A stretch of 64,000 bases of DNA, taken from the NCBI GenBank assembly GCA_965261345.1, contig OZ253449.1, forward strand, positions 2,304,001 to 2,368,000, given 5' to 3'. Position numbers and translations under genes: made by a program. This DNA is from Chloroflexota bacterium. Lineage in GTDB: Bacteria > Chloroflexota > UBA11872 > VXNJ01. The notes beneath the pieces are model-generated. The model was not told the origin of the DNA, searched no databases, and saw nothing but the letters and a program-made list of their open reading frames with translations. How positions within the stretch are numbered: the stretch's first letter is position 1; every line of letters starts with the position of its first letter. Positions 26,415 to 61,933 of this stretch are shown here, in pieces.

Positions 26415-26442
26415 AGTGGACATAACCGCGAATTTGCTCAAT
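26415..26442. other. Degenerate dif-like site (one good arm)
   Basis: AGTGGACATAA-CCGCGA-ATTTGCTCAAT; the left arm reads TTATGTCCACT on the minus strand, and the other arm is poor. Confidence 0.3.
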
Positions 26443-36329: not shown

Positions 36330-36357
36330 ACTCGACATAATTGGCATTATGTTTCAT
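36330..36357. other. dif-like XerC/D recombination site
   Basis: ACTCGACATAA-TTGGCA-TTATGTTTCAT; 11-6-11 layout with inverted ACATAA/TTATGT core, intergenic. Confidence 0.65.
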
Positions 36358-36528
36358 AGCCGGTGTTGTTCGGGTTAAAGTCCGCACCCCTCACGGATCA
36401 AATCACCCTATGTGCATGCCTGCACCTTGACGAAATTCAGCCGGAAATGCCAACTTTTAATTGCGCGGCCATATGGTCCGCTGGGCCGACTGCGGGTTGG
36501 CGCCGTAGCGGCAAGGCCGGGCAAGAAC

Positions 36529-37308
36529 CTATGCGGCTGGGAATTGGCCGACCGGGAAGACGTCATTTATAAGCAAGGAGTTTTGATTCGGGCAGTTCGG
36601 AAGCCAGGTTCGCCGCCATTCGGCCTTTGGAATATGCATCAATAGTTCATCGGCGGACCAGACCTCCGCCTCCAGCTCGTATCGACGGTGACGGCTGATC
36701 GAAACGCCGTCGCCGGGCAACTCAAAACTGATTGGAAACGTCCCAACACCCAGCAGAGTCGTTTCAGTCACGACCGTGCGGGCATCCGGGTCTGAAACGT
36801 CCACCAGCCGAATGCGTAACTGAGCATCGCTAGGTAGAGATTGACCCGCCATTCCCAAATGGATCATCCCGGGTAAGGACTCGATACACCGGTCGTTTGG
36901 GTCGATTGAGACCACGAGCACATCGGTGTTGGTCGGTGCACCGCGCGTTATTACCGGGTGGACGGTGTCATTCACATACAGTAGCTCCTCTCCGAGCCTC
37001 ACCTCGGCCTGCAGCGAATACTGGGCACCAGGGCGAACCTCACGAGGGTCATACGCAATCTGGAACCAGGTTGGCAATTGGCTTGCGCCGCGGATGACGT
37101 CACGCCCAAGCTCCACCGACGACGCGTCGGCGAGCGACGTATCGCGGAGCGATACGACCACAGTTGCACCGCGTGGCAGTTCGATATCTCTATAAAACCG
37201 AACATGGCCTGCCACCGATCCGTCTCCCAACTGGTTGCACGCGAGGGTTAAGAACGCGGAGACCAAAAGCAACGCCGCTCCAAGACATAGTGCCCGTAAA
37301 GGAGTCAT
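36529..37308 (-). CDS. YbaY/YscW-family lipoprotein with tandem domains
   Basis: Lipobox LTLAC; LPRGATVVVSLRDTSLADA, and a second copy LPSDAQLRIRLVDVS. Confidence 0.85.
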   Translation of the reverse strand: MTPLRALCLGAALLLVSAFLTLACNQLGDGSVAGHVRFYRDIELPRGATVVVSLRDTSLADASSVELGRDVIRGASQLPTWFQIAYDPREVRPGAQYSLQAEVRLGEELLYVNDTVHPVITRGAPTNTDVLVVSIDPNDRCIESLPGMIHLGMAGQSLPSDAQLRIRLVDVSDPDARTVVTETTLLGVGTFPISFELPGDGVSISRHRRYELEAEVWSADELLMHIPKAEWRRTWLPNCPNQNSLLINDVFPVGQFPAA

Positions 37309-38129
37309 CTTTTTCGATTCAATATGGTCATAGATGGTTTTGCAGCCCATTCTGCAAAAACCGTATCTTCAGCCGCATTCGGTTACCCGTTACTGCCCGC
37401 AACCGAATTCGCATAGCTCACCAAAGCAGTCGCTTGGCGCGTTGATTTAAGGAATGCGATTTGAGCTACTTCCGGTCGCAGGCCGAAGCTTTCATGCCGG
37501 CATTCTTGCAGGCATTCCCGCGGGTGGCTGTGATCGCCCGGGTACTTCTGACCCACCTCCGCCGCTGGCGAGGGGGCCGCAGCGGCGATGTTGGCGGGCC
37601 AGTTTCTGCGCACCCGGGTACTTAAGTCCGACTGACATTCCCATCGACCTGCCGGCCATCAGCGATCGCTCTGGATTGGGAGATAGGAGTTCAATTTGAG
37701 TCCGACACGCCTCGCCCGCACTCGATCCAAACGGGAAAGGGACGGTTGCCGCCGCGGCCCAGCAGTGCCGATCTGACCGATGCGCTCAGGTTCGACTCCG
37801 ACTGTTAGCGGCTCTACCGGCCGCTCATATTCATCGACGGCGGGCCGGCTGGGCTCGTTGTGGCGACAACTGCCGACCGCGACGACTTCGCAACGCTGGT
37901 CTTCGAGGAGAAGCTGCCGGAATTGCGGTATCGTCGCTTATGGCGAAGAGGGGAACGCAGTCAACAGAGCCGAGGCGGATTTCGGTATTGTGGTGGCGCC
38001 AAGGCATCCGAGAGCCTTCACACCGGTGGAACCGAAATAGCGAGCATTTTGCAAAATTTGCTCCCCGTGGTTCGAGCCCACAGTTCGCTGCAGTCGCTCG
38101 AACTCTTCAAAGATCAGGCTGGAACCGAC

Positions 38130-38600
38130 TCAGCAAATAGTTGAGTAGGCGTCCGGTTCAAATATGCCGTTGGCAAGCTGAATTTCGCGGACGTAGCAGA
38201 TGATATCCTCCACGTCATCCGGAGAGACGCCAGCGACGGGAGGCATGTCGCCGAAGGACCAGTGGTGTTGCTTCGTTCCCTGGCTGACCGCGTTGCGAAT
38301 GCTGAAGTCCGAGTGATGGCCGGGATGATAAACGCTGTCGATTAGAGTCGGGCCCAGATTGGTCCCGGCAGCGCCCACTCCGTGGCAGACCGAGCAGTTG
38401 ACATTGAACACTTCTTCGCCTGCCCGAGCCGTGTCGGACAAGACATACCCTTCCCTCAAAGCCTGTTCAGGCCCGTTCGAATCGGCAATATCGTACCCGG
38501 AGGTGCTCCCATCACCACATCCAGTCATCAAGAGCAGGACGAAGGATGCGACGAGGACATGGATCAGGAGCCTTCCAACTGATATTTGGCTTCTGGTCAC
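38130..38600 (-). CDS. Monoheme cytochrome c lipoprotein
   Basis: CSVCH heme motif, distal Met (FGDMPP) and lipobox-like MTGC; start uncertain. Confidence 0.88.
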   Translation of the reverse strand: MTRSQISVGRLLIHVLVASFVLLLMTGCGDGSTSGYDIADSNGPEQALREGYVLSDTARAGEEVFNVNCSVCHGVGAAGTNLGPTLIDSVYHPGHHSDFSIRNAVSQGTKQHHWSFGDMPPVAGVSPDDVEDIICYVREIQLANGIFEPDAYSTIC

Positions 38601-38840
38601 TAACGGAGATTCCCATCGTTGAGGCATCCACCGAGCATCCGCAAATCTTCGGATGGCCCAGCTGTGATCGCCGGATTGCAATTGACCCGTCCGGGTCGTA
38701 TATTTTCCGCTCGGTTTCCCGCCGATGATGGTCTCATCCATTGGTGAGCGGTAATGGAAAGCAAAATTCAATTTCCAGCGGCCGCGGCAGCTTTTCGGGC
38801 TCAATCGAGCCGCTACCGGCCGATCCAGTCTGCCCGGGCG

Positions 38841-39701
38841 CTATCCCAATTTGCTTTTGAGAAACCCGATCACACGGTCGGCAACCCACTCGGACTCGAA
38901 TTCGCCGCCGCCGTGCCCTGAGCCTTTGAGCAGGTGAAATTCAGCGGTGTCTGGGCCGAATTTGCCCTTTAATGCTTCATGTAACCGCACTGATTGCGGC
39001 GCCCCGATCAGCCGATCGCTGTCGCCGTGCATGATCAGGAACGGCGGTGCCGAATTGGCTTGTTCAAGGAATGAGAGGGGGCTTGCCTGATAGGCCAATG
39101 TGGGGTTTTCGTCGACCACTGCACCGATCAGGTCAGATTCAGGAGACCCGGCCTCGCCGTTCGGCGGTGATCCCCGCTCAACACCGGTTAGGCCGATGTC
39201 ATGGTCCATGTGTTCAAAGTGGATCGGACCGAACCAGTCCACCACCGCATGAATTCGCAGGGTCGGGTTATCGGATAAGGCGATCCCCATCATTGCCGAC
39301 AGGTGACCGCCGGCTGATGAACCGAACGCGGCTATCCGATCGCTATCAAATCCGTAGCGGTCAGCGTTTTCGCGTATGAACCTGCTCACATTGGTCAGGT
39401 CTTCAAGTTGGGCCGGCCAGACTGCTTGCTGACTGAGTCGGTAGTTGATGCTAACGATCGCCATTCCTGCATCCAGCAGGCGCCTTGCCAGCTTGGGTTC
39501 CCGCTTGTCCCCCAACCGAAATGCACCGCCGTGAATCCAAACGACGACCGGGTACCCACCACCTTCGCCATCCGGCAAATAGATATCGCACACATTCCGG
39601 AGCGCGATGTCCGAATACGCGACATTGATGTGCGTCGGCGCGGGATGGCCGCTGGCGTCATGCGGCGAATCTACTGTCCGCAATTCTTGCTCCGCACTCA
39701 T
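38841..39701 (-). CDS. Alpha/beta hydrolase (HSL-like esterase)
   Basis: HGGAF, GSSAG, HGDSD and GSGHG. Confidence 0.92.
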   Translation of the reverse strand: MSAEQELRTVDSPHDASGHPAPTHINVAYSDIALRNVCDIYLPDGEGGGYPVVVWIHGGAFRLGDKREPKLARRLLDAGMAIVSINYRLSQQAVWPAQLEDLTNVSRFIRENADRYGFDSDRIAAFGSSAGGHLSAMMGIALSDNPTLRIHAVVDWFGPIHFEHMDHDIGLTGVERGSPPNGEAGSPESDLIGAVVDENPTLAYQASPLSFLEQANSAPPFLIMHGDSDRLIGAPQSVRLHEALKGKFGPDTAEFHLLKGSGHGGGEFESEWVADRVIGFLKSKLG

Positions 39702-39967
39702 CTCCGGCAGTCCGAATCTGAAGATTTGTTCACATTAGATCCTGCCCGGTGACTTCGAACGCGCCTTAGGGAACGCGCCCAAATCGAACGGCGGCCTGCG
39801 ATTAATCTCCTGGGCACGCTGCGCGCGCGTTGGAACGGGCACCAAATTGCCGTCAATTGGCAGAGCAACGATTGCGCCGAGACCGCATGTCCGCTTCAAG
39901 CAACACGATCCGATATTTGGGAATTTCAACTGCCCACGCCCCAGGGGTTCTGGGCCGATGCGGGATG

Positions 39968-40019
39968 TATTCCTCTACCGGCAACAGCACGACGCGCACC
40001 CAAATGTCTACGGGCAGCA
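39968..40019 (-). repeat. Diverged duplicate of the 3' end of the M16 peptidase gene (43308-43359)
   Basis: 52-nt match with 5 mismatches; reads LPVDIWVRVVLLPVEE versus LPVDIYVRVVLLPVEE. Confidence 0.9.
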
Positions 40020-40398
40020 GGTTGCGGTCGTGCGCCGATTGGTGGCCGATCTGGACATTCCGATCCGGATCGTGGCCGTTCCCACCGTGCGCCAAGGACG
40101 GGGCTGGCGCTGGACGCCCGCAACACCCACCTTTCCCTCGCCCAGCGGGCGGCGGCGCCTGACGCCTACCGCGCTGTTGGCAACCCGGAACCGGTTCGGG
40201 AACCAACTTTTGTCGGCCGCCGGACTGGCGGGCTTCTGCCGCGGACTGCTTGAGGCCCAACCGGCGATCGCTGCCATCGATTACGTGGCCACCGTTGATC
40301 CCGACACGATGGATCCGTGGGAAAGCGGGCCCTGCATGCTGGCGGTGGCGGTTCGAATCGGCAGTGTGCGCCTGATCGACAACCGGATCCTGAACTGA
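40020..40398 (+). pseudogene. panC: C-terminal fragment of pantoate-beta-alanine ligase
   Basis: QQVAVVRRLVADLDIPIRIVAVPTVR...IDYVATVDPDT...AVRIGSVRLIDN; the N-terminal half is absent. Confidence 0.8.
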
Positions 40399-40529
40399 GC
40401 ACCGGTCGGTCGCTGCTAACTTGACCGGGCCGACCTTAGGATTTGGCAATTGGACTAGGGCAGCGCCGACCCTGCAGATTGCGATCGCACCCGGGCGGCG
40501 GCTGTGTGCCGCGGAGAGTGTGAACGCCG

Positions 40530-41699
40530 ATGATTACAAGGTTTGGTACCCTCTACGCCGGGCACGTCGATTTGGACGATATCGGATTGGCCGGCGTTCC
40601 GGTCAATGAACGCTGGCTGTCCGATGAACGCCTGGCCGGCGTTTTTGGCAAGACCGAGGCGATCGCCACGGTAATGGACGAGGTCGGCTACGACACTCTT
40701 TGGCTGGCCGAGCACCATTTCCAGCGCGAAGGCTACGAGTGCATCCCCAATCTGCTGCTGCTCGGCGTGCATCTGGCGCACCTGACCAAAAAGATCAAGA
40801 TCGGCTGCGGCTTCAACGTCGCCCCGATGTGGAATCCGCTGCGTTTGGCCGAAGACTACGCCACCGCCGACATCCTCACCGGCGGGCGGGTCATCTTTGG
40901 AGTGGGGCGCGGCTATCACACCCGCGAGGTCGAATCCTTCGGCGCCCCGATGCTGGACCAGGATGTCAATCGCGACTTGTTCGAGGAACAGGTCGACATA
41001 GTCTTTAAGGCATTCAACAATCGCGCCTTTTCCCACCACGGCAAGGCCTACACGATTCCGCCGCGGGTCCCCTATCGTGGCTACGAGTTAGAGGAGATCA
41101 CGCTGGTGCCGCGACCGCGCACGCTGCCGGTTGAGTGCTACCAGCCGCTGGTGAGCGCCAGCCAGCGCGGGATGGACTTTATGGTCAAGCACGGGATCAA
41201 GGGCATGGTCGGCGGCGGGGCCGCGTCCGGTGGGGCGTCCGACAAAGTCGTACGGGCGTGGCGCGAAACGTTGGCCCGGGCCGGTCGCGAGACCGAGCTG
41301 GGCGCCGACCTGATCATCGGGTTCTCCTTGCATCTGGCCGATACCGAGGAAAAGGCGATTGCCGAGGCGACCAAGTTCTTCGAGGAGGACATGAAGATGT
41401 TTGCCCCGCTGGGGTTCGCCCGGGCTACCCCGGAGCAGTTGGCGGCGCTGGAAGACCCGGCGCTGATCGCTAAAACTCCGCTGCCGACGATTCGCGACGG
41501 CATCGAACGCGGTTCTTGGCTGTGCGGACCTCCAGAAATGGTCGCCGAAAAACTCATGGCCGCCCAGGATCTCTATCCCGGCCTCACGCAGATAAATATC
41601 GGCTCAGTAGTTGGTACGCCCAAGGACGTGATCCTCGAGCAGCTGCGCTGGTTCGGCAACGAGGTAATGCCCGAATTCAAGGCCCAGGCCAGCTCCTAG
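40530..41699 (+). CDS. LLM-class flavin-dependent oxidoreductase
   Basis: WLAEHHF, NPLRLAED and GRVIFGVGRGY. Confidence 0.93.
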   Translation: MITRFGTLYAGHVDLDDIGLAGVPVNERWLSDERLAGVFGKTEAIATVMDEVGYDTLWLAEHHFQREGYECIPNLLLLGVHLAHLTKKIKIGCGFNVAPMWNPLRLAEDYATADILTGGRVIFGVGRGYHTREVESFGAPMLDQDVNRDLFEEQVDIVFKAFNNRAFSHHGKAYTIPPRVPYRGYELEEITLVPRPRTLPVECYQPLVSASQRGMDFMVKHGIKGMVGGGAASGGASDKVVRAWRETLARAGRETELGADLIIGFSLHLADTEEKAIAEATKFFEEDMKMFAPLGFARATPEQLAALEDPALIAKTPLPTIRDGIERGSWLCGPPEMVAEKLMAAQDLYPGLTQINIGSVVGTPKDVILEQLRWFGNEVMPEFKAQASS

Positions 41700-41701
41700 G
41701 C

Positions 41702-42825
41702 TGTCCTATTTCCGAGTACCTGCGACAGGTGAGCGCCTAATTTCGTAGGGGTCACTTAAGGCATCCTGCTGTGTTACCACACGCAGCTAAGGATTCCCGC
41801 TGTGACCCCCGAGGACACGATATACCGCTACCGCCTGCGCACTCTGGCATTGGCCAGGGAAATCGGCAGTGTAAGGGCCGCCTGCCGGGTGATGGGCATC
41901 CATCACTCGACCTATTACCGCTGGAAGTCGCAGGCCGACCGCTTCGGGGTTGACATCCTGCGACCGCGGGAGCGCCGCCGTCCGCAGATGCCGAATTCAA
42001 TCTCGCTGTTGATCGAGCAGCGCATCCTGGCGTTCTCAATCGGCAATCCCGGTCTTGGTCCTGCACGGATAGCGGCCGAACTGGCCCGGCAGAAATGGGG
42101 CGGGCTAAGGGTCTCACCCTCCGGCATCTGGAGGGTGCTAAAGCGCCATGGGCTAAACACCAGGTCCAAGCGTCTGGCATTGGTGGCCGGCTATGCCGCC
42201 CCGCCCGGGCCGCAGCCACTCGAACCTGAACCCGAGCGCCACCTGGATGTTGATTACCCCGGGCAGCTGGTGCAGCTGGACTGCTTCCATATCGGAAGAC
42301 TCTCCGGCACCAGAGGGACCCTGTGGCAGTACACCGCCATTGACGTGGCCTCATCCTTCGTCTGGGCCGAACTGCACACCAGTCCGCGCAATCCCTCGGC
42401 CCGATGGACATCGCGGCTGGCCCGAAGGGTGGCTAAGGACCTGGCCGCCAGGGGCTGGAAGCTGAAAGCTGTCATGACCGACAACGGCTCCGAGTTCCGA
42501 TCACACCAGTTCAGGGAGATGGTTGCCGCCCTTAGCGCCCGCCAGAAGTTCATTCATGCCGGAAGGCCCCAGACCAACGGTTGCGTCGAACGGGTCCAAG
42601 GGACCATCCTTCAGGAGTGCTGGAAGCCGGCCTTTGCCCGTTACCTGGTCCCCAAGCAAACTGGATTAAGACGCGAGTTGAACCGTTATCTGCGCTACTA
42701 CAACCGCGATCGCGCTCACACCGGCAGGTGGAACCTGGGCAGGACCCCCGAAGCGGTCATCGGCAAGGGCAGAATCTATGCTTGAGAAACAGCGGGATGT
42801 GTCGCTAGATCTCCGAAACGGGACA
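41702..42825 (+). mobile_element. IS481-family element with intact transposase (41802-42785)
   Basis: TGT...ACA ends (TGTCCTATTTCCGAG / CTCCGAAACGGGACA). Direct repeat TCCTAGGC on both sides contains the CTAG target and the LLM stop codon. DDE motifs QLDC, TDNGSEF and NGCVER. Confidence 0.92.
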
Positions 42826-42833
42826 TCCTAGGC

Positions 42834-43070
42834 GCGCGGCCCTTGCCAGTCCCTGGGCCTGGAACGGGCACGCCTGGGCTATCGAGCCCTTAAAGAATGA
42901 GACCACCGCGCCGGCCAACAGCAGGAACCCGGTGCCGGTGTAGAGCAGGTTCATGCCCGCCAGGAACGCCGACCCAGCCCCGCTGTCAGCACTGGAATCG
43001 ACCGTGGCTGAGGTCGGGAGCAAACCCCATCGCCGCCATCATGCCGACGCTCTGAGTGATCGGGGCGCCG
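42834..43070 (-). pseudogene. C-terminal fragment of an MFS-type transporter
   Basis: AFLAGMNLLYTGTGFLLLAGAVVSFFKG resembles the last helix of DHA2-type MFS proteins. Confidence 0.5.
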
Positions 43071-43306
43071 TTGATCAATGCCAGCGGAGTCGATTCAGAG
43101 ACCCGCGAAATCGTATACATTCCGGCAGCGGTGCGCCGTCACCCAACCCTCCAAACGGCGTGCGCCCTCGACCGGACGCCCGATTCCCGCAAATAGAGCG
43201 GTCAACGTTGGTTCCGGGACTGAATGTCTACCTCAGAATGCACGATCTCGACGTCTTGGAATCGCCAGTCAATCGCAGCAGCGGGCCTCTAAACGCAATC
43301 TGGATG

Positions 43307-46300
43307 CTATTCCTCTACCGGCAACAGCACTACACGCACATAAATGTCGACGGGCAGCACGCGTAGAGCAACGGCCTCAATCTCAGAAATCGTCACCGCT
43401 TCCAAACGCTCCTCGAATTCGCCAAATTGCGAGACTGGCTCTTCTCGTTGCGACGCATTCAGGATCTGTCTCAGCCAATAGCCGTTTTCGCGCAACTGTT
43501 CCTCGCGCGAGGAGAGGAATTGCTCCTTGACCGTATCCAGGTACTCCATTTCACCGCCGGCGCGCAGCCACGCGATCTCCTCCAGCACAACCGCAAGCAA
43601 TTCATCGGTGCGCGTGGGATCACTTCCAAAAACGATTGATACCTGGTATTCGGGATCGGGCAAGCGGCTGCGGCTCGCGTTTACCTGAACGCTGTAAGTT
43701 CCGCCGAGGTCTTCACGAACTCTCTCGCGCAGTCGAATCCCCAGCATCTCGCCCGCAACAGAGAGCGCCAGCGCTTCCTGTCGGCTAAATTCGGCCTTGC
43801 CAGCGAACACCAGCACCGTTGCGGCGCGCGGTTCAATACCGCTGCGGACGACATGGTCCTCCAGTCCGGTCGGCGGGTCGATCCCGACATCGCGCCACTG
43901 CTCGACATCGCCTATGGAAGGAAGGCTTGCCAGGTACGTTTCCGTAAGCGAACGCAAGTTATCCCAATCGAAGGCGCCCACGAATACAAACGTCGAATCA
44001 CCCAGATTTTGGAATCGGTCAGAATACACCGATTCCACCCGGCCGGCATCCAGCTCGGCAAGCGTTTCCACCGTCAGTGGACGCTCCCGAAAGTGGCTTT
44101 GGCTGAGCACGGTGCCAACTCTGTCAAATAGAACCGAGTCGGGGTCGGCGGCGCGGGCTTCGGCAACGCTTTGCAGGCTCGCTTCGTATCTGGAAAAGTA
44201 GGCTGGATCCAGTCGCGGCTGAGTCGCGTAGAGAGTTATCAATTGGAAAAGGGTTTCAAGATCCTGCGGCGAGGCGCCGCCACTGAATCCCTCGAACAGC
44301 TCCCCGATGTAGGGGGACACCGAAACTCTTTTGCCGGCCAGCAGCTTGTCGAGCGCGACACTGTCGTGCAGGCCAACTCCGCTGCCGGAAACTATCGCGT
44401 CCGCGTATTGCGCCGACACATGGTCATCATCGTCCACCAGCGAGTGTCCGCCGGGGCTATAGGAGCTAAACGCCACTTCATCGTTACGGAAGTCGGTTTG
44501 CTTGGCGATAACCGTGATGCCGTTGGATAACGTCCACCGCACCGCATCGATAGATTCGAGTTGCTCTTCCTTGGTTATGCTTCCTGGGACTGGCGGGTTC
44601 GCCAGCAACGGAATGTCGTCGAGGGAGTCCTCAAAGGGGTCAAGGTCAAGCGTGCTGCCGGCTTGGATCTGCGTTAGTAAAGTCGTGGCCAATTCGCCAT
44701 CGGTGATGGAGCCTTCAGTCACGGGGCGAACAACCAGGAGTGCCGTATCTTCAAGTTGGGTCCAGGATTCTTTGAGCGCGTCGAAGTCCGCAAGGTCGAT
44801 CTGGGGCAGCAGTTCCTGGTACAACTCCCACTCGGCCGCGATTCCCGGCGCCGGTATGCCGCTGAGGAAATGGACCGTGTATTCATCGGCCAGGCTTGCC
44901 GACGGAATCTGGTCGCGTTGCTTGTACGCACTTTCAACCGCCCGCAGAAGCGTGATCTTCTCGCGCGCCAATTCGGTGTCGGTAAAACCGTGCAAGCGAA
45001 CTCGGTGCATCTCTTCGAGCACCGCCTCCAGACCCCGCTCAACCCCATCCTGCTCGACCCACCCCGAAAACGTCAGGATGTCCAGGGATTCCACGAACGG
45101 TAATCGTCCCGCCCCCGCCTGCAGGTAAGGCGGATCCACCACCTGGGCCCGCTCGAACAGGCGTGCATTGAGCATCATGAAGGCCAGTTGTTCCACCACG
45201 TAACGTTTAAAGGACACTAGGCCCTGACCGCTGTCGGGGCGCAGCTTTCGGATCAAGATGAACTGGGTGCCGGGCGATTCGGGATCGGTGAAAACTTCGA
45301 TCTGCGGAATATCGTGGCTGGGAACATCAATTCGAGGCCGGTCGGTAGGGCCCCCGACCGCGGCGCGATCCTGGCTGGCCTGCCCCTCCGGCGGCGGCGC
45401 AAAGTGCTGCTCAATCTTGCTTTTGATTACAGCAGGGTCAAAGTCTCCAACTGCGATGAGCGCCATCTGATCAGGCCTGTACCAGCGTTCGTAGTAATCG
45501 CGCAACCTTTGGACGGGCGCAGTTTCAATGACCGATGTCAAACCAATCGGGGCGCGCTGAGCATAGCGCGAGGAACCAAATAGCAGCATTAAAAAGTTGT
45601 CTTGGATGCGTGAAGAAAAGCCCTGGCTCAGTCGCCACTCTTCCAGGACCACGCCCCGCTCCAATTCGACCTCCTCCGGTTCAAAGGCAATTGCGAAGGC
45701 CCAATCGCTCAGGATCTGAAACGCGGTCTCGGTGATCTCGGGGTCATAGGTCGGAATCTCAATCCAGAAAAGGGTGTCGTCAAAGCCGGTGCGGGCGTTG
45801 ATGTCGGGGCCGAAGGTGCCGCCGACGGATTCAAGGTACTCGACGATTTCCTGCTTGGCGAAGCGCTCCGTCCCGTTGAACGCCATGTGCTCGACGAAGT
45901 GAGCCAGTCCGCGCTGGTCCTCGTCTTCGTGAACCGAACCGCCTTTGACGACAAGGAGAAACTCGGCCCTTTCACGTGGTTCCACGTTTTTTTTGATGTA
46001 GTAGGAAACGCCATTGGAAAGGGTGCCACGGACGACGGTGGGGTCAAATGGGAGGGGTGGGCCCACCTCGAGCTCCGGGACGATTACGGAGGCGGGTGTC
46101 GGGCTCGGTGCGGGTTCGGGCTGGACCGGAGCTGGAGTCGGACTCGCCGTCGGCGCAGGAGTTGCCGGTGCGGCGGTTGCGGTGGGCGCCGGACTTGCAG
46201 TCGGCGTGGGCGAGGGTGTCGAATCCGGTTCCGGATCGCAGGCGACCAAGGCAATCAGCACGAGCACGGACAGAATTGCGGCCAATGCCGACTTTAGATT

Positions 46301-46318
46301 CGCCCCGGTTGGATTCAT
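43307..46318 (-). CDS. M16B/PqqL-like zinc protease (insulinase family), lipoprotein
   Basis: Lipobox LVAC, Pro/Thr linker, HFVEHMAFNG inverted zinc motif and two LSNG-starting halves. Confidence 0.95.
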   Translation of the reverse strand: MNPTGANLKSALAAILSVLVLIALVACDPEPDSTPSPTPTASPAPTATAAPATPAPTASPTPAPVQPEPAPSPTPASVIVPELEVGPPLPFDPTVVRGTLSNGVSYYIKKNVEPRERAEFLLVVKGGSVHEDEDQRGLAHFVEHMAFNGTERFAKQEIVEYLESVGGTFGPDINARTGFDDTLFWIEIPTYDPEITETAFQILSDWAFAIAFEPEEVELERGVVLEEWRLSQGFSSRIQDNFLMLLFGSSRYAQRAPIGLTSVIETAPVQRLRDYYERWYRPDQMALIAVGDFDPAVIKSKIEQHFAPPPEGQASQDRAAVGGPTDRPRIDVPSHDIPQIEVFTDPESPGTQFILIRKLRPDSGQGLVSFKRYVVEQLAFMMLNARLFERAQVVDPPYLQAGAGRLPFVESLDILTFSGWVEQDGVERGLEAVLEEMHRVRLHGFTDTELAREKITLLRAVESAYKQRDQIPSASLADEYTVHFLSGIPAPGIAAEWELYQELLPQIDLADFDALKESWTQLEDTALLVVRPVTEGSITDGELATTLLTQIQAGSTLDLDPFEDSLDDIPLLANPPVPGSITKEEQLESIDAVRWTLSNGITVIAKQTDFRNDEVAFSSYSPGGHSLVDDDDHVSAQYADAIVSGSGVGLHDSVALDKLLAGKRVSVSPYIGELFEGFSGGASPQDLETLFQLITLYATQPRLDPAYFSRYEASLQSVAEARAADPDSVLFDRVGTVLSQSHFRERPLTVETLAELDAGRVESVYSDRFQNLGDSTFVFVGAFDWDNLRSLTETYLASLPSIGDVEQWRDVGIDPPTGLEDHVVRSGIEPRAATVLVFAGKAEFSRQEALALSVAGEMLGIRLRERVREDLGGTYSVQVNASRSRLPDPEYQVSIVFGSDPTRTDELLAVVLEEIAWLRAGGEMEYLDTVKEQFLSSREEQLRENGYWLRQILNASQREEPVSQFGEFEERLEAVTISEIEAVALRVLPVDIYVRVVLLPVEE

Positions 46319-46749
46319 GCCTTGTCCTTATTGCCGCAATTCCGGGACGAGGTTAATTCATTTCCAATTCGAAACGGCAGCGGATCGAGGGCGAACACGC
46401 CAACAGTCCATTGCAGACCCGCCGCGATCCGTGGCGTCAATTAGGAAACAATTCCCGATTGGCAAAATGCCCAGTCGGCGGGCAACAGCGAACGCGGCCT
46501 TCCGAACAATTCCACTTCGAGATCGATGATACGCCGGGCATTGGACCCGTTCATGGGGTAACTCAGGCATCGGCACGCACCTTCGCGCCCGCGCCGGTTG
46601 GATCGCACTAGTGTTCAGCGATGAACTGCGCCGTCCGCTGGGTCAGATTCGGCCCGGTTTCGGCCCGTTCCAACCGCCAATCGGTCAAGGCCAATCCTGC
46701 GTCTGCTGCCCATGCCGTGCCGGATCCAGATTTGCTGGCCCGCAATCTG

Positions 46750-47089
46750 AAGAGCCCGGATTTTTCGGTCAACAGCACTCACCAGGCGAGGCCGTATCCC
46801 TCTTCGGTCCAGCGGGCATGGATCGCATTCCTTTCCAGGCCAGGACCCATGTCACCAATACCAGGACGCCCAAGGCTGACATTGAAAATCGTTAGCTGAA
46901 TTCAAGTCAGATATTCAGATCAAGTGGAGGAATGGTTTGGGCATGGCAACGAGGCCATTCAGGGCATGCATCGCCCGACCCTGTCACCCAGACAACGCCA
47001 CCGAAAGCTACATGCGTAATCGCCACGGCAAGTCCCAACAGCGAGACGGTGTGGTGCCAGGACAGTTTGGCAGTCAATGACCCAGCCAT
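46750..47089 (-). pseudogene. ctaA: N-terminal fragment of heme A synthase (COX15/CtaA)
   Basis: FGGVVWVTGSGDACPEWPRC followed by a premature stop. Confidence 0.7.
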
Positions 47090-47508
47090 TCTGCTTTGGG
47101 TTGGCCCTATCGGAACGCCGAGTTGCTACCGAGACAGACGAATCCAGGGATCGGTGATCGCGGTGGCGGTGATGATTCGCCGGCCCCGAGCCGCATCAGC
47201 GTAGCCTGCGGGCCCGATTCGCCCGCGACCAGCCGGGGGCGAAAGCTGCTTCGAATCGCCGGATTCGTAGGCCCCGGCAGATGCAGCGGCCCCTTTTCTT
47301 ACGCGGTGCCAGCGGCAGGGTGTCTCTTTCCGAGCGCCCCGTGGCATATTCATCAATCAAGAAAATTAACTGCAAGCGGGAATTGACGATTGCGCCGGTT
47401 GTAGCAAACTCCGGTTTGTAGCGTACTGGCAACGGCCGCCTTCACACCGGCGCCGTCACGTGATCGATCTCTGCCTTCAAATAACCAGGCAGGTAAGGAG
47501 GCCTCCCA

Positions 47509-48435
47509 ATGCCTGAGCGCAAGGTGCTGCTGACCGGCGCAACCGGATACGTTGCATCCCAACTTCTTCCCGCGTTTCGTGAGAAGTACGACTTGTCATT
47601 GGTTGACGTTCGCGGGACCGATCGAGAGGGCCGGGAAGTAGCGGACGTCGCCATCTCCGATCTCAGCGCCCCAGACCTGGGGACGTACGCCCATCTATTC
47701 AAGGGCCAGGACTCGGTGGTTCACTTCGCACACATGCGCCGACGGGGAATTCCACTGGACGACTTCTATGATGAGCAATTCAACGTGGCGATGGCTTACA
47801 ACGTATTTAGATCGGCTTACGACGCAGGGGTGCGTCGGGTGGTGATGGCCAGTTCCAACCACGCCGCCGATTGGTACGAGCACGCGCTGATTCACGATCG
47901 CAAATTGGAGAATCTGGACCCGTACGACTTGCCTCTTTCCGACAACTTCTACGGATGGGCCAAGGCGACGTACGAGCACATCGGATTTTTATTTGCTTCC
48001 GGAGTTTTCGGGAGAAAATTGGAAGTGGTGATGGTTCGAATAGGCGCACCGCGGGAGATTCGCCTACAGAATTTCCCTGGCAACCCGAAGGCTTATAGGC
48101 GCGATTTGGGCGCTTACCTTAGTCGCAGGGACTTGTCGCAGCTGTTCACCAAAGCCGTGGAGACGCCGTCAATCGAAAACGAGCACGGCGTACCCTGGTT
48201 GGTGGTCTACGGGATAAGCAATAACACCCGCGCTTTCTGGTCCCTAACGAGCGCGCGAAAGTTTCTCGGGTATTCCCCCGAGGACGATTCCGAAGTCAAA
48301 TACGCTGACGACATTCGTAGTTTTCTAACCGGGCCCGACGGGAATCGAGAGCCGGGAAGAGTTGGCGGACGGATAGGGTCCGTCGATTTCCCTGATGCCA
48401 ATTTCATTCCACGCAGGCCACCAGCGGACGGCTGA
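47509..48435 (+). CDS. NAD-dependent epimerase/dehydrogenase (uronate dehydrogenase-like)
   Basis: TGATGYVA, MASSNHA, YGWAK and YGISNN. Confidence 0.88.
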   Translation: MPERKVLLTGATGYVASQLLPAFREKYDLSLVDVRGTDREGREVADVAISDLSAPDLGTYAHLFKGQDSVVHFAHMRRRGIPLDDFYDEQFNVAMAYNVFRSAYDAGVRRVVMASSNHAADWYEHALIHDRKLENLDPYDLPLSDNFYGWAKATYEHIGFLFASGVFGRKLEVVMVRIGAPREIRLQNFPGNPKAYRRDLGAYLSRRDLSQLFTKAVETPSIENEHGVPWLVVYGISNNTRAFWSLTSARKFLGYSPEDDSEVKYADDIRSFLTGPDGNREPGRVGGRIGSVDFPDANFIPRRPPADG

Positions 48436-48739
48436 CGATTCGCCCCGCCTTCAGCGCCATCCAGTGGCTCAAAGGGAGCACTCGTCCGAAATTAGCGCCG
48501 AGCGCCGGATCGCCCAGCTTTCAAAGAAGCCAACCGGAGTCCTCTGCTGAAACCGAGTTGAGCGTCATCCCATCGTGAAACCCTTCGCGCCACAGGGCGG
48601 TCGCCCCTCCCTCGGCCGTTAAACCGATAGAAAAGCGATGGTTGGGAGAGCACCTGGCCCGGGCGGCTAAATTCGCGGATTCCTGGCCGGACCCCAATCG
48701 CGGAGGTTTGTTGTTGGGCAGCTCAGGGTTTTCGGCGCC

Positions 48740-49585
48740 TTACCCAGGCACGCTAGTGGTGGGCGGTCTGAAATGATGGTCCTTGCGGGCGGGGTATTGA
48801 CGGGCGTGGAACTCGTCACTCCACTCGGTCAGCCTGGTCACTGCTTCTTCGAAAAGTAGCTTCCCTTTCTTTACGGAGGCCAGCTCGGGGGACCCGCACA
48901 CGCCTGTTTCCGTGTAAGTGCTCGTCCAGCTTGTTACGGCGACAGGCCCGAAACCGAACAAATCCACCGACTCGAATTTGGATCCCTGGGCGTTGGTCCA
49001 CGTCTGATGGTTTTTGGCCAGGTCCATTCGCACCATCGATTCGTCAATACCCAGTGCGAGTGAAGTTTCCAACTCGCAGGCGTGAGCGCAGCCACCGGGA
49101 AAATGCGACTCCCTCCACGTGGCAGCAAAATCTGGATCCACCGTGACAAGCGACCACCAACTCGTTAACGACACGACGGCGTCGGTTTCGATCATTACCC
49201 GCCGAGCGGCAAGATCCAATGGCGGCACGTTGGAGCCGTGACCATTGACCACTATCACCTTCTTGAACCCATGATGGACGACGCTCTTGATAACGTCTAC
49301 GACATAACGGATGAACGTTTCGTGGTGGACCGTGATGCTGCCCGGGAAGTCCATCACGTGAGTTGTGTACCCATAGGGGATTGCCGGCATCGCCAGCAGC
49401 CTGTCTGGCCTCCGTCGTGCGGCCTCGTCGGCCACTGAGTCGGCCGACCAGAGGTCCATCTTTATCGGCAGGTGCGGACCGTGTTGTTCGACCGTTCCCA
49501 CCGGCAGTATCGGTATCAAACCTTTCTCGACCGCCTCGTTTACCTCCGGCCAGGTCAAGTTTTCGAATCTGTGCCAATTGCTCAC
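48740..49585 (-). CDS. Creatininase family amidohydrolase
   Basis: EQHGPHLP, NGHGSN and HACELETS; start uncertain. Confidence 0.92.
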   Translation of the reverse strand: MSNWHRFENLTWPEVNEAVEKGLIPILPVGTVEQHGPHLPIKMDLWSADSVADEAARRRPDRLLAMPAIPYGYTTHVMDFPGSITVHHETFIRYVVDVIKSVVHHGFKKVIVVNGHGSNVPPLDLAARRVMIETDAVVSLTSWWSLVTVDPDFAATWRESHFPGGCAHACELETSLALGIDESMVRMDLAKNHQTWTNAQGSKFESVDLFGFGPVAVTSWTSTYTETGVCGSPELASVKKGKLLFEEAVTRLTEWSDEFHARQYPARKDHHFRPPTTSVPG

Positions 49586-49762
49586 GACTTTTCGCTCCGA
49601 GGCTATGGGGTTGTCAGTCGAGCGCACGCCGGCTCGATGCTGCCACCCTCGGAGCGTACTACGCCGCTTATGCGTGGCAACGCCGGATGAAGCGGGCGGC
49701 CTTCTTACGCGCTAGGCCACGCGGCTCGGCGACTCTGCACCAAAGACAATGCGAAGGTTTTT

Positions 49763-49996
49763 ATGGTTGTTTCCGCGTTGGACTGGGTGAGCGGCGTCGC
49801 GGAGGACGGCGAATCGATCGTAGTATTCGCTCGCGGCGAATGGTCGTGGGAGCTCAGATTTACCTTGGGTGGGTCCGACGTTTACATTTCGAAAATGGTG
49901 GCAGAGGCAACATCGCTGGAACAGTACTTCCTAGACGTTTCGGGTGATGATCCCGGTCCGTCAATGCCGTCTACGGCGTGTGCCTATTTTGTCTAG
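49763..49996 (+). pseudogene. Possible C-terminal fragment of an ABC transporter ATP-binding protein
   Basis: Ends with TSLEQYFLDV, typical of ABC-2 ATPase tails; no Walker motifs. Confidence 0.4.
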
Positions 49997-50004
49997 CGAA
50001 TGCC

Positions 50005-50032
50005 ACTCGACATAATTACCAATTGTTTCGAT
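50005..50032. other. dif-like site (one arm degenerate)
   Basis: ACTCGACATAA-TTACCA-ATTGTTTCGAT; the left arm is identical to the 36330 site and the spacer is identical to the 51775 site. Confidence 0.55.
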
Positions 50033-50284
50033 GTTGACTCGCCCGCAAATGCCAGGTTCGTCGATCCCGCGGGAGATTTCCACACTACGCTCTCCCGTAT
50101 TTGCCTAGTCCGCATCGATCGCTGGTATTGCCCCAGAACTGTCCATGTCATCAGTAAATCCGACGCGCATTTATGCCTGAGAGGAGGCCGGATTTGACGC
50201 GCACTCGTGGTTGGTTAGCAGGCGAGTTGGCTGCCTTGGTTCCCTCGAGTTCAGTGCTGTGGACTGGTCTCCTTCCAATCGCGA

Positions 50285-51379
50285 TCAGTGATCCCGAGTG
50301 GGCCGAGACAGAAGCTCTTTAATGTAGACATCTTGCTTCGAATAAGGAATCTCGATCTGTTCGCTTGCGAAGCGACGGTAGACCTCCGTGTTAAGGGAAT
50401 CAGTAACTCGGCCTCGCAGAACTGGTTCTTCGACCCAGGCCAATAGCTCTAGCTCCAGGCCCGAAGGCCCAAAAGAGCGAAATCGCACGCGCGCCTCGGG
50501 ATCGTCACACACTTCTTGTTGGCTATTGGCGGCATCGAGGAGTACCTGCTTGACATGATCGATATCGCTACCGTAGGCGGTCGCAACGCGAATCCGAATC
50601 CGTGCTTTTTTGTGGGGCCCGCCGGTCTCGTTGGTCACCTTGATGTTCCCCATGACGCCGTTGGGAATCGTGACTTCAACGTCATCGCGAGTAAGAACGC
50701 GTGTGCTCCGCAATCCGATATGAGTTACCTGTCCCCGTTCTCCCGAATCCAGGACGATGTAGTCGCCAAGGCGGTACGGAGCATCAATCAAGATGAGGAC
50801 TCCGGCGAAAAAATTCGCAACTGTGTCTCTTGCGCCGAAACCGACCGCAATGCCTATGATTCCCGCCGAGGCCAGCCACGCTGTGATGTCGAGATTCCAC
50901 AGGAGGAAGAGGATGTAGGCTGCAAATACCACAAGCAGCACATTGTTCACATTGCGGAATAGAGGGACAGTGCGCTCGTCGAGGTACCGAAACCGACCCT
51001 TTTCGTGACTCAGAACTTCCAGGATCAAATGATTTAGACGAATTGCGAGCCCTAGACCCACCACCACCGCAATCGTTCCAAAAACTCCGTAGGTAATAGT
51101 TCGGAGTAAACCCTCCAAACGCAAGAGGCTTGACGCAACGACAAAACCACCCACCAGTACAAAGAGGAAAAGCGGGCGATGCAGAATGCCCACTAGGCGA
51201 TCGTCGAAATCGCTTTCAGTCTGACGCGCCCAACGTAACAGCAGCCTGGTAACGACCCAATCAGTGATCCAAGCAATAAATACGCTCAGGATTACAACTG
51301 CGGCCGCCTGGATACGAGGATCAACCGCCACCGTTCCGAGTCCCGCAAACTTGTCGAACATAGCCTCTAAACCCTGCAT
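50285..51379 (-). CDS. MscS-family mechanosensitive channel
   Basis: GIIGIAVGFGARDTVANFFAG, IGLRST and EIPY. Confidence 0.93.
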   Translation of the reverse strand: MQGLEAMFDKFAGLGTVAVDPRIQAAAVVILSVFIAWITDWVVTRLLLRWARQTESDFDDRLVGILHRPLFLFVLVGGFVVASSLLRLEGLLRTITYGVFGTIAVVVGLGLAIRLNHLILEVLSHEKGRFRYLDERTVPLFRNVNNVLLVVFAAYILFLLWNLDITAWLASAGIIGIAVGFGARDTVANFFAGVLILIDAPYRLGDYIVLDSGERGQVTHIGLRSTRVLTRDDVEVTIPNGVMGNIKVTNETGGPHKKARIRIRVATAYGSDIDHVKQVLLDAANSQQEVCDDPEARVRFRSFGPSGLELELLAWVEEPVLRGRVTDSLNTEVYRRFASEQIEIPYSKQDVYIKELLSRPTRDH

Positions 51380-51774
51380 TCACCGCCTCCCGAATTTTGC
51401 GGCAGGCACGAGTAGCACGGACCCGCATCGGGCAAATGCCGCGATGTAGCCAAGCGCCAAAAGGCTCGATCAGACCGCCTGCTTCTGGACCGATGCGGAA
51501 ACGACGGATGCTGCTGCCTATCACATCGCCCATCGCGCCGTTGCAATTGAATTTTGCACGCCAAGTTGCCGCACCGGCACCGTGAAGATCAAAAGTGGTT
51601 AGGCTGAAACTGATCTAATCATTTGGCGCACGCATGGCCAGCGTGACCCGCGCTTTTCGGTCTAATAGTCAAATGGCCGGTTTGGTACGATTCCGCAATT
51701 TAATAACGATGGCACACCGCTCTAGGCGCTTCGCCGTTCGGGAGTTTTGCCGCTCAATGAACGATCAGAATCGG

Positions 51775-51802
51775 TGTTTACATAATTACCATTATGTCTA
51801 AC
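51775..51802. other. dif-like XerC/D recombination site at the island boundary
   Basis: TGTTTACATAA-TTACCA-TTATGTCTAAC; compare E. coli dif GGTGCGCATAA-TGTATA-TTATGTTAAAT. Confidence 0.7.
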
Positions 51803-51949
51803 CCTCGTTACCAAAGTCCACTTGACCTCCGCCTTTTTAAATTCCCGTGCTCCTGGACAACGACCCTCGGCGCACGTTAACTCGGTTAACCAAGGGCGCT
51901 CGAAATCAATTCTCAAATTAGAGTATTAGATCGTGACCACTTTGAATTC

Positions 51950-52588
51950 GTGCCCGCAATGCGATCTCTAAGCGAAAGTGATCACCTCACCTCGAGTTTG
52001 GAGGCCGCGACCCAGGGGACCTACGGAACGATCCTGGCCGATCCCCCGTGGAGGTTCAATAACCGCACAGGGAAAGTCGCTCCTGAATACAAGAGGCTGA
52101 ATCGCTATTCGTCATTGGCGATTGAGGAAATAAGCGCATTGCCTATACAGGATTTCGCGGCCGACGATTCCCATCTGTATTTGTGGGTTCCCAACGCACT
52201 GCTTGACGCGGGTCTGGCAGTAATGAGCAAATGGGGCTTCAAATACAAAACGAACATCGTCTGGCAAAAGGTCGGGAGTGACGGCGAACCGGATCGGCGT
52301 GGTGTCGGTTTTTATTTTCGAAACGTTACGGAATTGGTGCTCTTTGGGGTTCGCGGTTCGAAACGCACTCTGCCTCCGGCAAGGCGCCAAATCAACTTAG
52401 TAAAAAGCCGTCGACGAGAACACTCCAGAAAACCCGATGAGCTTTATGAAATCGCCGAGCAGTGTAGTCCGGGCCCGTATTTGGAATTGTTTGCGCGTCA
52501 TTGCCGGGAGGGATGGTCGCAATGGGGTGATCAACTCAAAGCTACATCTGAGTTTTCCGATTCGGCGAGTCGGGTCACGCCGCTGTGA
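51950..52588 (+). CDS. MT-A70 family N6-adenine methyltransferase
   Basis: ILADPPW, HLYLWVPN, FRNVTELVLFG, REHSRKP and LELFAR. Confidence 0.93.
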   Translation: MPAMRSLSESDHLTSSLEAATQGTYGTILADPPWRFNNRTGKVAPEYKRLNRYSSLAIEEISALPIQDFAADDSHLYLWVPNALLDAGLAVMSKWGFKYKTNIVWQKVGSDGEPDRRGVGFYFRNVTELVLFGVRGSKRTLPPARRQINLVKSRRREHSRKPDELYEIAEQCSPGPYLELFARHCREGWSQWGDQLKATSEFSDSASRVTPL

Positions 52589-52656
52589 CTGTCGGCACTT
52601 GGTGAAAGTCGGGTTCGAGGGAAAAGAAAATGCGACCGTGAAGACTCGAGTGCCGT

Positions 52657-54963: not shown

Positions 54964-55270
54964 CTATTCGATGTCGAATTGCGCAAGCCGTCGAGACGCC
55001 CACTAGTAATTGAGTCGCCAGAAGTACTGTAGTGCAGGAGGCCTCAAATACGCCAGATTTTGGCAAAAAAATAAGAAATTAAAGCTGCATTTGGTTTCGC
55101 CGTGATACGGTCAGCGATTCCGATTCAGCGCGCCGGTTTGATTGGGGTTGACGCGGAACGGGAGCCCTAGTTGCGGCCCTTCAACTGATGGCAGGGATTG
55201 CCAAGGGGTCCTGAACCGATTCTTTAAATCGCCGGGTCCGAGCCAAATTGAATTTTGGGATGAACTTTGA

Positions 55271-55790: not shown

Positions 55791-55858
55791 GGTGTCAATC
55801 TCCACCACCATTAGTCCACATCTGTCGCCGCTCAGCGACTTTGTCAGTCCAACTGTCC

Positions 55859-57724
<1,866 letters not shown>

Positions 57725-58886: not shown

Positions 58887-59083
58887 CATTGACAAGCGAA
58901 TGGTCTTGAAGGAAAACAGCACTTCAGAGGGCTTGCCTGGAGAATCTTTCGAGAACTCAACACGATTGCCTAGGTCAAAAATTGGCAATTCGGGATTCTG
59001 AATCAAGTCAGTTGTTTCACCCCGGTTGCGCGCGAGAACTACCCACCGGACCAAGCAATTCAGTTCCTTAAGGACTTTCGTTT

Positions 59084-61931: not shown

Positions 61932-61933
61932 CC

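Follow-up and report, generated by a model that had tools for sequence, protein, structure and literature searches.

Why should a bacterial chromosome, for which a single dif site is canonical, carry a whole row of dif-like sites? The question is raised by a 64,000-nucleotide stretch of the genome of a Chloroflexota bacterium (NCBI GenBank assembly GCA_965261345.1, contig OZ253449.1), referred to here as the window, which comprises bases 2,304,001–2,368,000 of the single 2,393,548-bp contig (61.6% GC, guanine plus cytosine) of the genome under study, G000. In the preliminary description of the window, three intergenic sites of the 11-6-11 form (two 11-nucleotide arms around a 6-nucleotide spacer) were reported at window positions 36330, 50005 and 51775, with a weaker one at 26415, and it was proposed that host Xer recombinases accumulate cargo there without an integrase. 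All four sites are present at these positions, with scores of 25.8–32.6 bits in the matrix described below, and their placement between genes agrees with crude gene calls. They form the outer left edge of a larger, two-sided array that is centred outside the window. The terminus zone of this genome is made up of mirror-image arrays of such sites, which split the DNA into small gene cassettes, and the sites are probably the junction scars of serial integration by host Xer-type machinery, in the manner of integrative mobile elements exploiting Xer (IMEX).

The window had been claimed to lie at the terminus, and the genome as a whole agrees with this. The minimum of the cumulative GC skew is at dnaA (genome position 1,188,163), and the maximum is a broad plateau, at or above 97% of the maximum from 2,284,000 to 174,452 across the contig join, so that the window, being inside the plateau, belongs to the terminus region. 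The highest-scoring site in the genome, at position 1555 (40.3 bits), has 11-nucleotide arms that are exact inverted repeats of each other, a property shared in G000 only with a site at 1,339,246, and is situated within the plateau at 50.4% of the genome from dnaA. An equivalent site is the top match in each of the three complete congeneric genomes used for comparison (G006, 40.2 bits; G002, 40.9 bits; G003, 36.6 bits), the genus comprising six genomes overall, and in these it has the same arms, a spacer that is the same or differs by one base, and a position 43–53% of the genome from dnaA. Site 1555 is therefore the probable functional chromosomal dif, as judged from its sequence and position, and the window is located 27–91 kb to the left of it (dif would be at window coordinate ∼91,100, outside the window). 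Among skewed octamers resembling the FtsK-orienting polar sequences (KOPS), none was so strong that dif could be located from it alone (highest z-score, ∼4.5). Rather than the canonical single dif, G000 carries one full terminus site, about 40 hybrids, a second full site with the spacer TTACCA, and a full site of foreign type at 1,339,246.

The 28-bp matrix with which the sites were collected was seeded from 16 sites by coordinate, iterated three times and applied with a threshold of at least 16 bits. It identified 61 dif-like 11-6-11 sites in G000, compared to 4–10 in five local shuffles, and the exact inner core ACATAA-N6-TTATGT is present in six copies where a base-composition estimate gives ∼0.01. 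In the window, three matches with no more than two mismatches were observed, against a shuffle mean of 0.48, and none of 100 shuffles reached three. The motif is not dispersed, as a genome-wide scan for clustering had been proposed to establish, with 43 of the 61 sites falling in a 281-kb terminus zone that spans the contig join (genome 2,330,415 to 217,862) and amounts to 11.7% of the genome. By region, 35 sites are in 1,555–217,862, eight in 2,330,415–2,388,083 (including the four reported first), 12 in 1,295,054–1,339,246 and six elsewhere. Spacers are highly varied, with 27 different ones among 41 sites, and the two arms differ in conservation, the distal arm of the TTATGTC type carrying 14.9 bits of information and the variable proximal arm 7.4 bits. 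In a wider search confined to the core motif of the genus, this motif was present in 29 of 401 genomes and was single-copy in nearly all of them.

This distribution largely refutes the idea that the motif is a transcription-factor operator. An intergenic palindrome would suit an operator, 39 of the 43 terminus-zone sites being wholly intergenic by the crude gene calls, and a half-site does abut the start of the xerC-like gene in three genomes, where autoregulation by Xer is plausible. However, the sites are clustered in 12% of the genome, and of 38 array sites with gene context, 11 lie between convergent gene ends, seven between divergent genes and 20 between tandem genes; their presence in all three kinds of space alike speaks against promoter boxes. 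With the reversal of polarity at dif and the ending of cassette homology inside the sites, both described below, the operator explanation is barely credible.

The sites are also strongly oriented. Summed over G000, G002, G003 and G006, and counting only sites whose two strands differ by more than 3 bits, there are 28 minus and two plus sites to the left of dif, and two minus and 44 plus sites to the right (Fisher p = 3e-16, which overstates the evidence because the genomes are kin), and each complete genome shows the flip at dif. The conserved arm faces away from dif on both sides, and along each arm of the array the sites are in direct orientation (28/30 left, 44/46 right). Three consecutive sites of the right arm of G000, together with their cassettes, recur at 98% identity in mirror order on the left arm of G002. 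Such mirror-order blocks fit with recombination between a site on one arm and a site on the other: the two are inverted relative to each other, and the exchange would turn around the segment containing dif and so carry cassettes across.

Two opposed groups of oriented sites around the terminus are also the textbook layout of Ter sites, and polarity of this strength might be expected if the sites were bound by a replication termination or segregation protein (Ter-like or FtsK-related), their mirror orientation being maintained by selection on the direction of the fork or translocase. No match to the Tus (PF05472) or RTP (PF02334) families was found in G000, however, in searches whose controls recovered both in E. 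coli and B. subtilis, and the sites possess the full anatomy of dif, with the 11-6-11 form and an inner CATAA/TTATG core. Nor does this explanation account for cassette homology that breaks inside the sites, for a second cluster of sites near the origin, or for sister genera without arrays, and it is considered very improbable.

The intervals between sites are often 0.4–4 kb in length and contain one or two genes, which are not co-oriented. Their cargo includes a ribbon-helix-helix and PIN pair, a Phd/YefM antitoxin, GmrSD and HNH nucleases, a DUF4238 protein, a GNAT acetyltransferase, helix-turn-helix (HTH) regulators, an acetamidase/formamidase-family enzyme and a trypsin-like protease. The terminus zone is an insertion sequence (IS) sink as well, with Pfam counts among 133 right-arm proteins of eight each for Mutator, IS110 and rve, seven for DDE group 1, and five each for IstB and intron-type reverse transcriptase. 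No phage or plasmid replication family was present among the 25 most frequent Pfam families of these proteins, 66 further families being outside that list.

Evidence that the sites are recombination junctions comes from the places where homology begins and ends. In G000, positions 121,845–123,672 are repeated at 189,140–190,967 with 99.9% identity, the repeat ending inside sites, and positions 51,338–55,152 are repeated at 91,810–95,646 with 97.7% identity, starting in sites; this 3.8-kb cassette, present twice in G000, is found once in G003 at 94%. The site pairs 96,965/106,968 and 75,912/166,306 have common right flanks from the spacer onward, and G000 75,920–76,900 matches G003 1,710,091–1,709,110 at 97.4%, with ends no more than 16 bp from sites in both genomes, on opposite arms. 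In these cases, the cassette lying toward dif keeps the variable arm and the one lying away from dif keeps the conserved arm, exactly as a crossover in the spacer would predict. Among non-IS blocks of at least 90% identity, a filter that was chosen after the first, all-block result, eight of 35 ends are within 30 bp of a site compared to 0.35 expected, and none of 5000 randomisations reached eight. A group II intron (reverse transcriptase and maturase, genome 123,651–125,596) was seen to lie inside a dif-like site, just past the TTATG of the conserved arm. Targeting of the sites by group II introns was ruled out, with only one of five copies in a site.

Comparison with core genes suggests that some of these cassettes are shared between species. 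The dnaA, xerD and xerC loci of G000 have 67–74% DNA identity to those of G002, G003 and G006, and terminus cassettes reach 94–99% between species, a pattern that supports horizontal exchange of cassettes within the genus. At 96.4%, identity to G002 is well above the 67–71% of core loci in a 24,025-bp block (genome 2,381,324 to 11,787, across the contig join) that holds dif itself, which suggests a recent transfer of the dif region between species. Core-like collinearity with G003 holds to ∼2.28 Mb and resumes at ∼0.33 Mb, which puts the extent of the mosaic zone at ∼440 kb. In otherwise core-like DNA and with no site nearby, a 4.7-kb block of G000 (genome 2,268,614–2,273,354) was also noticed that is 93.7% identical to G003 DNA ending 27 bp from the TTACCA-spacer site of that genome.

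Within the window, the outermost left hybrid site (26415..26442, minus strand, 25.8 bits, intergenic) has its conserved arm on the left, away from dif. A gene pair encoding a flavin adenine dinucleotide (FAD)-oxidoreductase and a thiamine pyrophosphate (TPP) enzyme (window 26661–30252) starts ∼225 bp to the right of this site, and a paralogous pair at genome 2,388,308–2,391,724, with 78–85% DNA identity, starts ∼204 bp from the site at 2,388,083. A third copy of the pair was observed on the opposite arm in G003. Site 1 (36330..36357, minus strand, 32.6 bits) possesses the exact ACATAA/TTATGT inner core and, on the plus strand, the spacer TTGGCA. The 13.6-kb block that separates it from site 2 (36358..50004) was characterized through Pfam and homology, and encodes a YscW-like lipoprotein, a cytochrome c, an esterase, a luciferase-like monooxygenase, an IS481-type transposase, an M16 peptidase, an epimerase and a creatininase. 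Homologous blocks are present in G003, G006 and G002 at 69–88%, which is core level or slightly above, and the block appears to be an old resident. The IS481-type element inside it (41701..42871, plus strand, Pfam rve/HTH) is an insertion polymorphism: in some contigs from the metagenome runs X1, X2 and X6, a joint skips 41701–42871 and 38 other letters are found there instead. Synteny with G003 breaks between window positions 35998 and 36547, over site 1, the two sides being ∼30 kb apart in G003, and breaks again over site 2, with a resolution of ∼300–550 bp at the two sites. The earlier suggestion that synteny breaks in relatives should be compared with the sites has thus been answered in its favor, breakpoints coinciding with sites, including sites 2 and 3.

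Site 2 (50005..50032, minus strand, 25.8 bits) is a hybrid with the good arm of site 1, the spacer TTACCA and a degenerate arm toward the neighboring cassette; the sharing of an 11-nucleotide arm with site 1 and of a spacer with site 3 had been described correctly from the sequence. The neighboring cassette (50033..51774, minus strand) contains a single gene for an MscS-type mechanosensitive channel, assigned by Pfam (50285–51379, 55% GC). Nothing matching it was found in the 100 kb of terminus DNA from G002 that was compared, and MscS is present elsewhere in G003 and G006, at 69–74%. In G002, the creatininase-side block leads through one site, whose arm and spacer agree with site 2 in 19 of 21 bases, directly to array DNA. 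A single TTACCA site in G002 thus stands in the place that is taken in G000 by the MscS gene between sites 2 and 3, both with TTACCA. Be it an insertion or an excision, the event took place in that spacer, and this lends substance to the earlier claim that these are recombination hybrids.

Site 3 (51775..51802, plus strand, 31.6 bits) is a full site, in which both arms are good and the spacer is again TTACCA. Its 18-nucleotide core, including this spacer, is present 21–56 kb from dif in G002, G003 and G006, and also in G005, and site 3 is likely a secondary attachment site. That it is a conserved syntenic locus was ruled out, as the flanks within 2.5 kb are non-homologous among the five genomes; a shared core between unrelated flanks is the appearance expected of a live attachment site. 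To its left, G000 matches its relatives at 69–88%, and to its right only through repeat or IS-like pieces, so that on sequence comparison site 3 appears as the border between genus-conserved and strain-specific DNA. Cover in run X6, which is from another study, drops from 6.9 to 0.1 just past site 3, a hint at most. The strain-specific left array starts here (51803..64000, 50–55% GC) and continues beyond the window to dif, with further sites at genome 2,374,849, 2,379,025 and 2,388,083. Its cargo within the window, according to Pfam, comprises an MT-A70 methylase, a DndB-like DGQHR protein, transposases of the IS110 and IS3 types and a type I restriction-modification HsdM protein. The MT-A70 methyltransferase and the 768-aa DndB-like (DGQHR-type) protein (window 51950–54963, 50% GC), directly to the right of site 3 and found only in G000 among the genomes compared, are likely a defense pair. 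A matrix match inside the DndB-like gene (54429..54456, minus strand, 20.9 bits) is probably due to chance and is doubted because 4–10 matches of such strength are expected genome-wide by chance alone. An Rfam scan of the window gave no match.

Which enzyme made these junctions is a question of what G000 encodes. Only two tyrosine recombinases (PF00589) were identified, both Xer-like and both far from the arrays, along with one FtsK, so that counterparts of the xerC and xerD genes, the search for which had been proposed as a check, are both present. A 303-aa protein is best matched by XerD models and a 335-aa protein by XerC models, both below the equivalog cut-offs, and with integron-integrase models the two score only 58–64 bits compared to cut-offs of 265–435. 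Across the genus, 2–3 tyrosine recombinases are found per genome (two each in G002 and G003, and one in the fragmentary G004). The XerC-like protein retains the full catalytic set, its closest solved relative being the XerA-type protein of the archaeon Pyrococcus (4A8E). The XerD-like protein, encoded at genome 723,705–724,613 on the minus strand, has Chloroflexota/Dehalococcoidia metagenome-assembled genomes at 33–37% identity as the nearest named among the matches listed. In an alignment with E. coli XerD (1A0P), the catalytic Arg-I is replaced by Gln and His-II of the HxxR box by Arg, whereas the second Arg, the final His and the Tyr are unchanged. In E. coli XerD numbering, the replaced residues are Arg148 and His244. 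Each of the six genomes of the genus has replacements at both positions, the first being Q, H or A and the second R, whilst 15 of 15 XerD-like homologues from seven other genera are canonical at both. Within the genus, the XerD-like protein diverges faster (60–62% identity, compared to 69–74% for the XerC-like protein). The two catalytically complete paralogues of a canonical XerCD pair are not what is found here.

The description of the system as integrase-free stands in so far as these two are its only tyrosine recombinases, but three of the four serine recombinase genes in G000 are within the terminus zone, all in the right array, and about a third of the right-arm proteins scanned are transposases or intron reverse transcriptases. 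The sites might then be used by another recombinase, either the large serine recombinases of the zone or an unrecognised enzyme, with Xer uninvolved; the number and location of the serine recombinase genes, which include two of three identical copies with a 696-aa reading frame, are in keeping with this. The 11-6-11 form, however, is typical of the dif sites of tyrosine recombinases and counts against a serine recombinase, and the identical copies look like a mobile element of their own, so this explanation is highly unlikely. The three copies are at genome 34,669, 38,811 and 1,056,222, the first two inverted and 4 kb apart in the right array, and they look like parts of a separate mobile element.

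Serial IMEX-like integration by the host Xer-type machinery is the explanation that we consider probable, with Xer catalysis, the direction of events and any current activity being inferred from sequence. Small circles, each bearing an attachment site with one good and one degenerate arm, would integrate into a full site. Each integration would regenerate a full site on one side and leave on the other a hybrid, consisting of degenerate arm, spacer and good arm, and repeated integration would stack cassettes outward from dif with the good arms of the hybrids pointing away from it. This would explain the direct orientation along each arm, the outward good arms, the regenerated full site, and the recurring pattern in which the variable arm of one cassette is followed by the spacer and the conserved arm of the next. 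Because both arms of dif are identical, cassettes could enter either way, or else cross over through inversions between sites on opposite arms, hence two mirror arrays. Differences between spacers would probably insulate neighboring sites from recombining together. In the window, this would make site 3 the second full site; site 2 would be the hybrid that arose when the adjacent MscS cassette integrated, and site 1 and the site at 26415 would be older hybrids further out. Given the degenerate XerD, the XerC-like protein may act alone on both arms, or one strand exchange may be completed by replication.

Several observations weigh against this explanation. The loss of Arg-I and His-II from the XerD-like protein makes the classical two-step XerCD reaction doubtful. 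Much of the mosaicism may have been caused by the transposases and intron reverse transcriptases, or by the serine recombinases, and the 24-kb dif block looks more like homologous replacement than cassette integration. As many as 27 of the 35 high-identity block ends are away from sites, and with all homology blocks included the result is weak, with 10 of 287 ends within 30 bp of a site compared to 3.0 expected and a maximum of 11 in 2000 randomisations; this test is weak because IS copies and similarity decay dominate it. Neither an excised circle nor an empty site within one population was seen in the assembled contigs of four public runs, which contained no joint at sites 1–3 and only one clear joint in all, that over the IS481-type element, although contigs are unable to show rare circles. 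The matrix was trained on G000 itself, the shuffles preserve mononucleotide content only, in 1-kb blocks, the gene calls behind the intergenic status are crude, and the four genomes with array evidence all belong to one genus. Lastly, the second cluster of sites near the origin is not explained by integration at a terminus dif.

Some of these observations would be met if the sites were fossil scars of an old Xer-type recombination that is now inactive, and if the turnover of the zone today were driven by IS elements, by serine recombinases and by homologous exchange among shared cassettes. The block from site 1 to site 2 shows about the same divergence from relatives as the core (69–88%), most hybrid sites have one poor arm, the XerD-like protein is without two catalytic residues, about one in three of the scanned proteins comes from an IS or an intron, and the dif block at 96.4% identity to G002 resembles homologous replacement. 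Set against this, however, are cassettes of 1–4 kb at 94–98% identity that end no more than 16 bp from sites in two species whose core is at ∼70%, which suggests events that are recent relative to speciation, and the duplicate cassettes of G000 (97.7% and 99.9%) also end in sites. We therefore regard fossil scars as unlikely, and serial integration as the better description of the terminus arrays.

The second cluster consists of 12 dif-like sites in 44 kb of low-GC DNA (genome 1,295,054–1,339,273), ∼110–150 kb from dnaA. Here a DUF1883-TIR gene and an Abi-P2-like reverse-transcriptase gene each form, on their own, a low-GC cassette bounded by sites, a protein with a type ISP restriction domain is encoded nearby, and sites with cores similar to those of the cluster recur in G001, G003 and G006. 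The site at its end (1,339,246–1,339,273) is a perfectly palindromic 11-6-11 site with the arms of the dif of two sister genera, g3 and g4, and is present in no other genome of the genus, so it was probably imported with foreign DNA. Two isolated sites at 1,602,901 and 1,636,882, of 32.4 bits each, 34 kb apart and inverted, do not fit serial integration at dif. Genes near them have homologues that flank dif in g3 (G011, G017), and the pair may be the trace of an older arrangement of the terminus.

Sister genera offer a view of what may have preceded the arrays. In seven genomes from four other genera (g3, g6, g7 and g8), an 11-6-11 site with palindromic arms, which are exact inverted repeats in six of the seven, lies 0.27–1.4 kb upstream of an xerC-like gene, and in a fifth genus, g4 (G009), the same type of site is ∼2.7 kb from the xerC-like gene. 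This gene is 42–55% of the genome from dnaA in the five complete sister-genus genomes checked. Five genomes of g3 and g4 have the full site in one copy only. Four of the five contain no further copy of the half-site, and in the fifth, G017, where the dif arms are slightly different, the half-site was not recovered. With a unique full site and no extra half-sites, the g3 and g4 genomes have a classical single dif in an Xer-dif module, without arrays. The present genus has only a half-site at the xerC-like gene, directly upstream of the start codon (G000, G003 and G006), and the full dif is 270–470 kb away. In G000 this half-site (genome 2,125,303–2,125,330) has the conserved good arm, and it may serve in autoregulation or be what is left of the ancestral dif. 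That the whole 270 kb between it and dif are accreted DNA was ruled out, G000 being collinear with G003 at 67–77% from 2.12 to 2.28 Mb. Tyrosine recombinases number 11–24 in four of the six g3 and g4 genomes searched. In G009, G013, G015 and G017, from these two genera, many of them were seen to be paralogous ∼334-aa copies tens of kb apart, those of G017 lying at 3.1–3.8 Mb and 0–0.3 Mb, and these may be an integrase-based counterpart of the arrays.

Several features of the arrays are shared with known systems. IMEX have no integrase of their own, are flanked by dif-like sites in direct orientation, regenerate a full site whilst leaving a hybrid, can be stacked, and have one degenerate attachment arm. 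In like manner, the arrays of G000, G002, G003 and G006 are situated at the chromosomal dif and terminus and have direct-orientation sites on each arm. Those of G000 contain no tyrosine integrase and occur alongside host Xer genes, and its hybrid site 2, MscS and full site 3 stand where G002 has a single site. Unlike IMEX, the arrays of G000 comprise ∼40 sites that bound mostly ∼1–4-kb units, each with one or two genes, and extend over 281 kb as mirror images to the left and right of dif; they occur in Chloroflexota, and the XerD-like partner appears to be catalytically degenerate. IMEX at dif include CTXphi, RS1 and TLCphi of Vibrio cholerae, the gonococcal genetic island and LME-1 of Legionella (PMC9226527; PMC6744903; PMC9765430; bioRxiv 10.64898/2026.06.12.731946).

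With the pdif modules of Acinetobacter, the arrays share rows of small modules bounded by 28-bp Xer sites, a cargo of toxin-antitoxin, IS and accessory genes, and the lack of a dedicated integrase (PMC12907356). The same 2026 report includes a chromosomal “dif module island” with alternating C/D and D/C sites, ∼1.1 Mb from the main dif (PMC12907356). In contrast, the sites of G000, G002, G003 and G006 share one orientation along each arm (28/30 and 44/46 in total), and the main dif, at the terminus, is the centre of the arrays. Acinetobacter pdif sites have one conserved and one variable arm, as do those of G000 (14.9 and 7.4 bits). Sedentary chromosomal integrons are likewise platforms that stack many small, often single-gene cassettes with toxin-antitoxin, acetyltransferase and unknown genes, in which the newest cassette is expected beside the active site. 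Unlike integrons, G000 has no integron integrase, its sites are 28-bp double-stranded sites of the dif type, and its cassette genes do not share one orientation. No attI- or attC-type sites were identified in G000, the absence of attC resting on the 28-bp length of the sites rather than on their folding. The single-recombinase modules (XerS/difSL, XerH/difH and archaeal XerA) are resembled by the sister genera, in which the xerC-like gene adjoins a unique palindromic dif at the terminus. The present genus differs from them in keeping a half-site at the gene, with the full dif 270–470 kb away, and a second, XerD-like gene with two changed catalytic residues.

For Chloroflexota, no dif-like arrays were found in the literature, supplementary tables not being covered. 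Single dif sites have been predicted in three Dehalococcoides genomes (Kono et al., 2011; PMC3025954), and in the available part of a Pelagibacterales preprint XerC/D are mentioned only as excluded from mobile-element counts (10.64898/2026.10.07.757358). The preliminary description did not know such a system to have been described for this kind of organism, which holds for Chloroflexota in the literature covered but not for the principle, since chromosomal dif-module islands have been published for Acinetobacter (PMC12907356). What is new is the terminus-centred mirror architecture, the phylum and the link to a degenerate XerD, while the logic of IMEX and dif modules is known.

Textbook cassette systems are integrons and the pdif modules of Acinetobacter, with IMEX usually seen as a few phages at dif, and a gene-capture layout of the present kind has so far been described mainly for cholera phages and Acinetobacter plasmids. 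It is possible, though we hold this only tentatively, that the genus turned its dimer-resolution site into a two-armed, integron-like capture platform, occupying 12–18% of the genome and exchanging cassettes between species, when dif became uncoupled from the xerC-like gene and the XerD partner was catalytically inactivated; a single active recombinase, or a one-strand exchange completed by replication, would then have favored capture over loss. The arrays and the catalytic loss of XerD so far represent a single evolutionary event. A free-living, uncultured lineage appears to use Xer/dif as its main route to defense, toxin-antitoxin and metabolic genes, replacing the integrases of its sister genera (2–3 tyrosine recombinases, compared to 11–24). 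The mirror polarity of scars around dif provides a simple sequence signature by which the process may be found in other phyla. If confirmed, these findings would provide a natural setting in which to study the role of a catalytically dead XerD, and a mechanism by which “flexible genome islands” could arise in streamlined environmental bacteria without obvious mobility genes.

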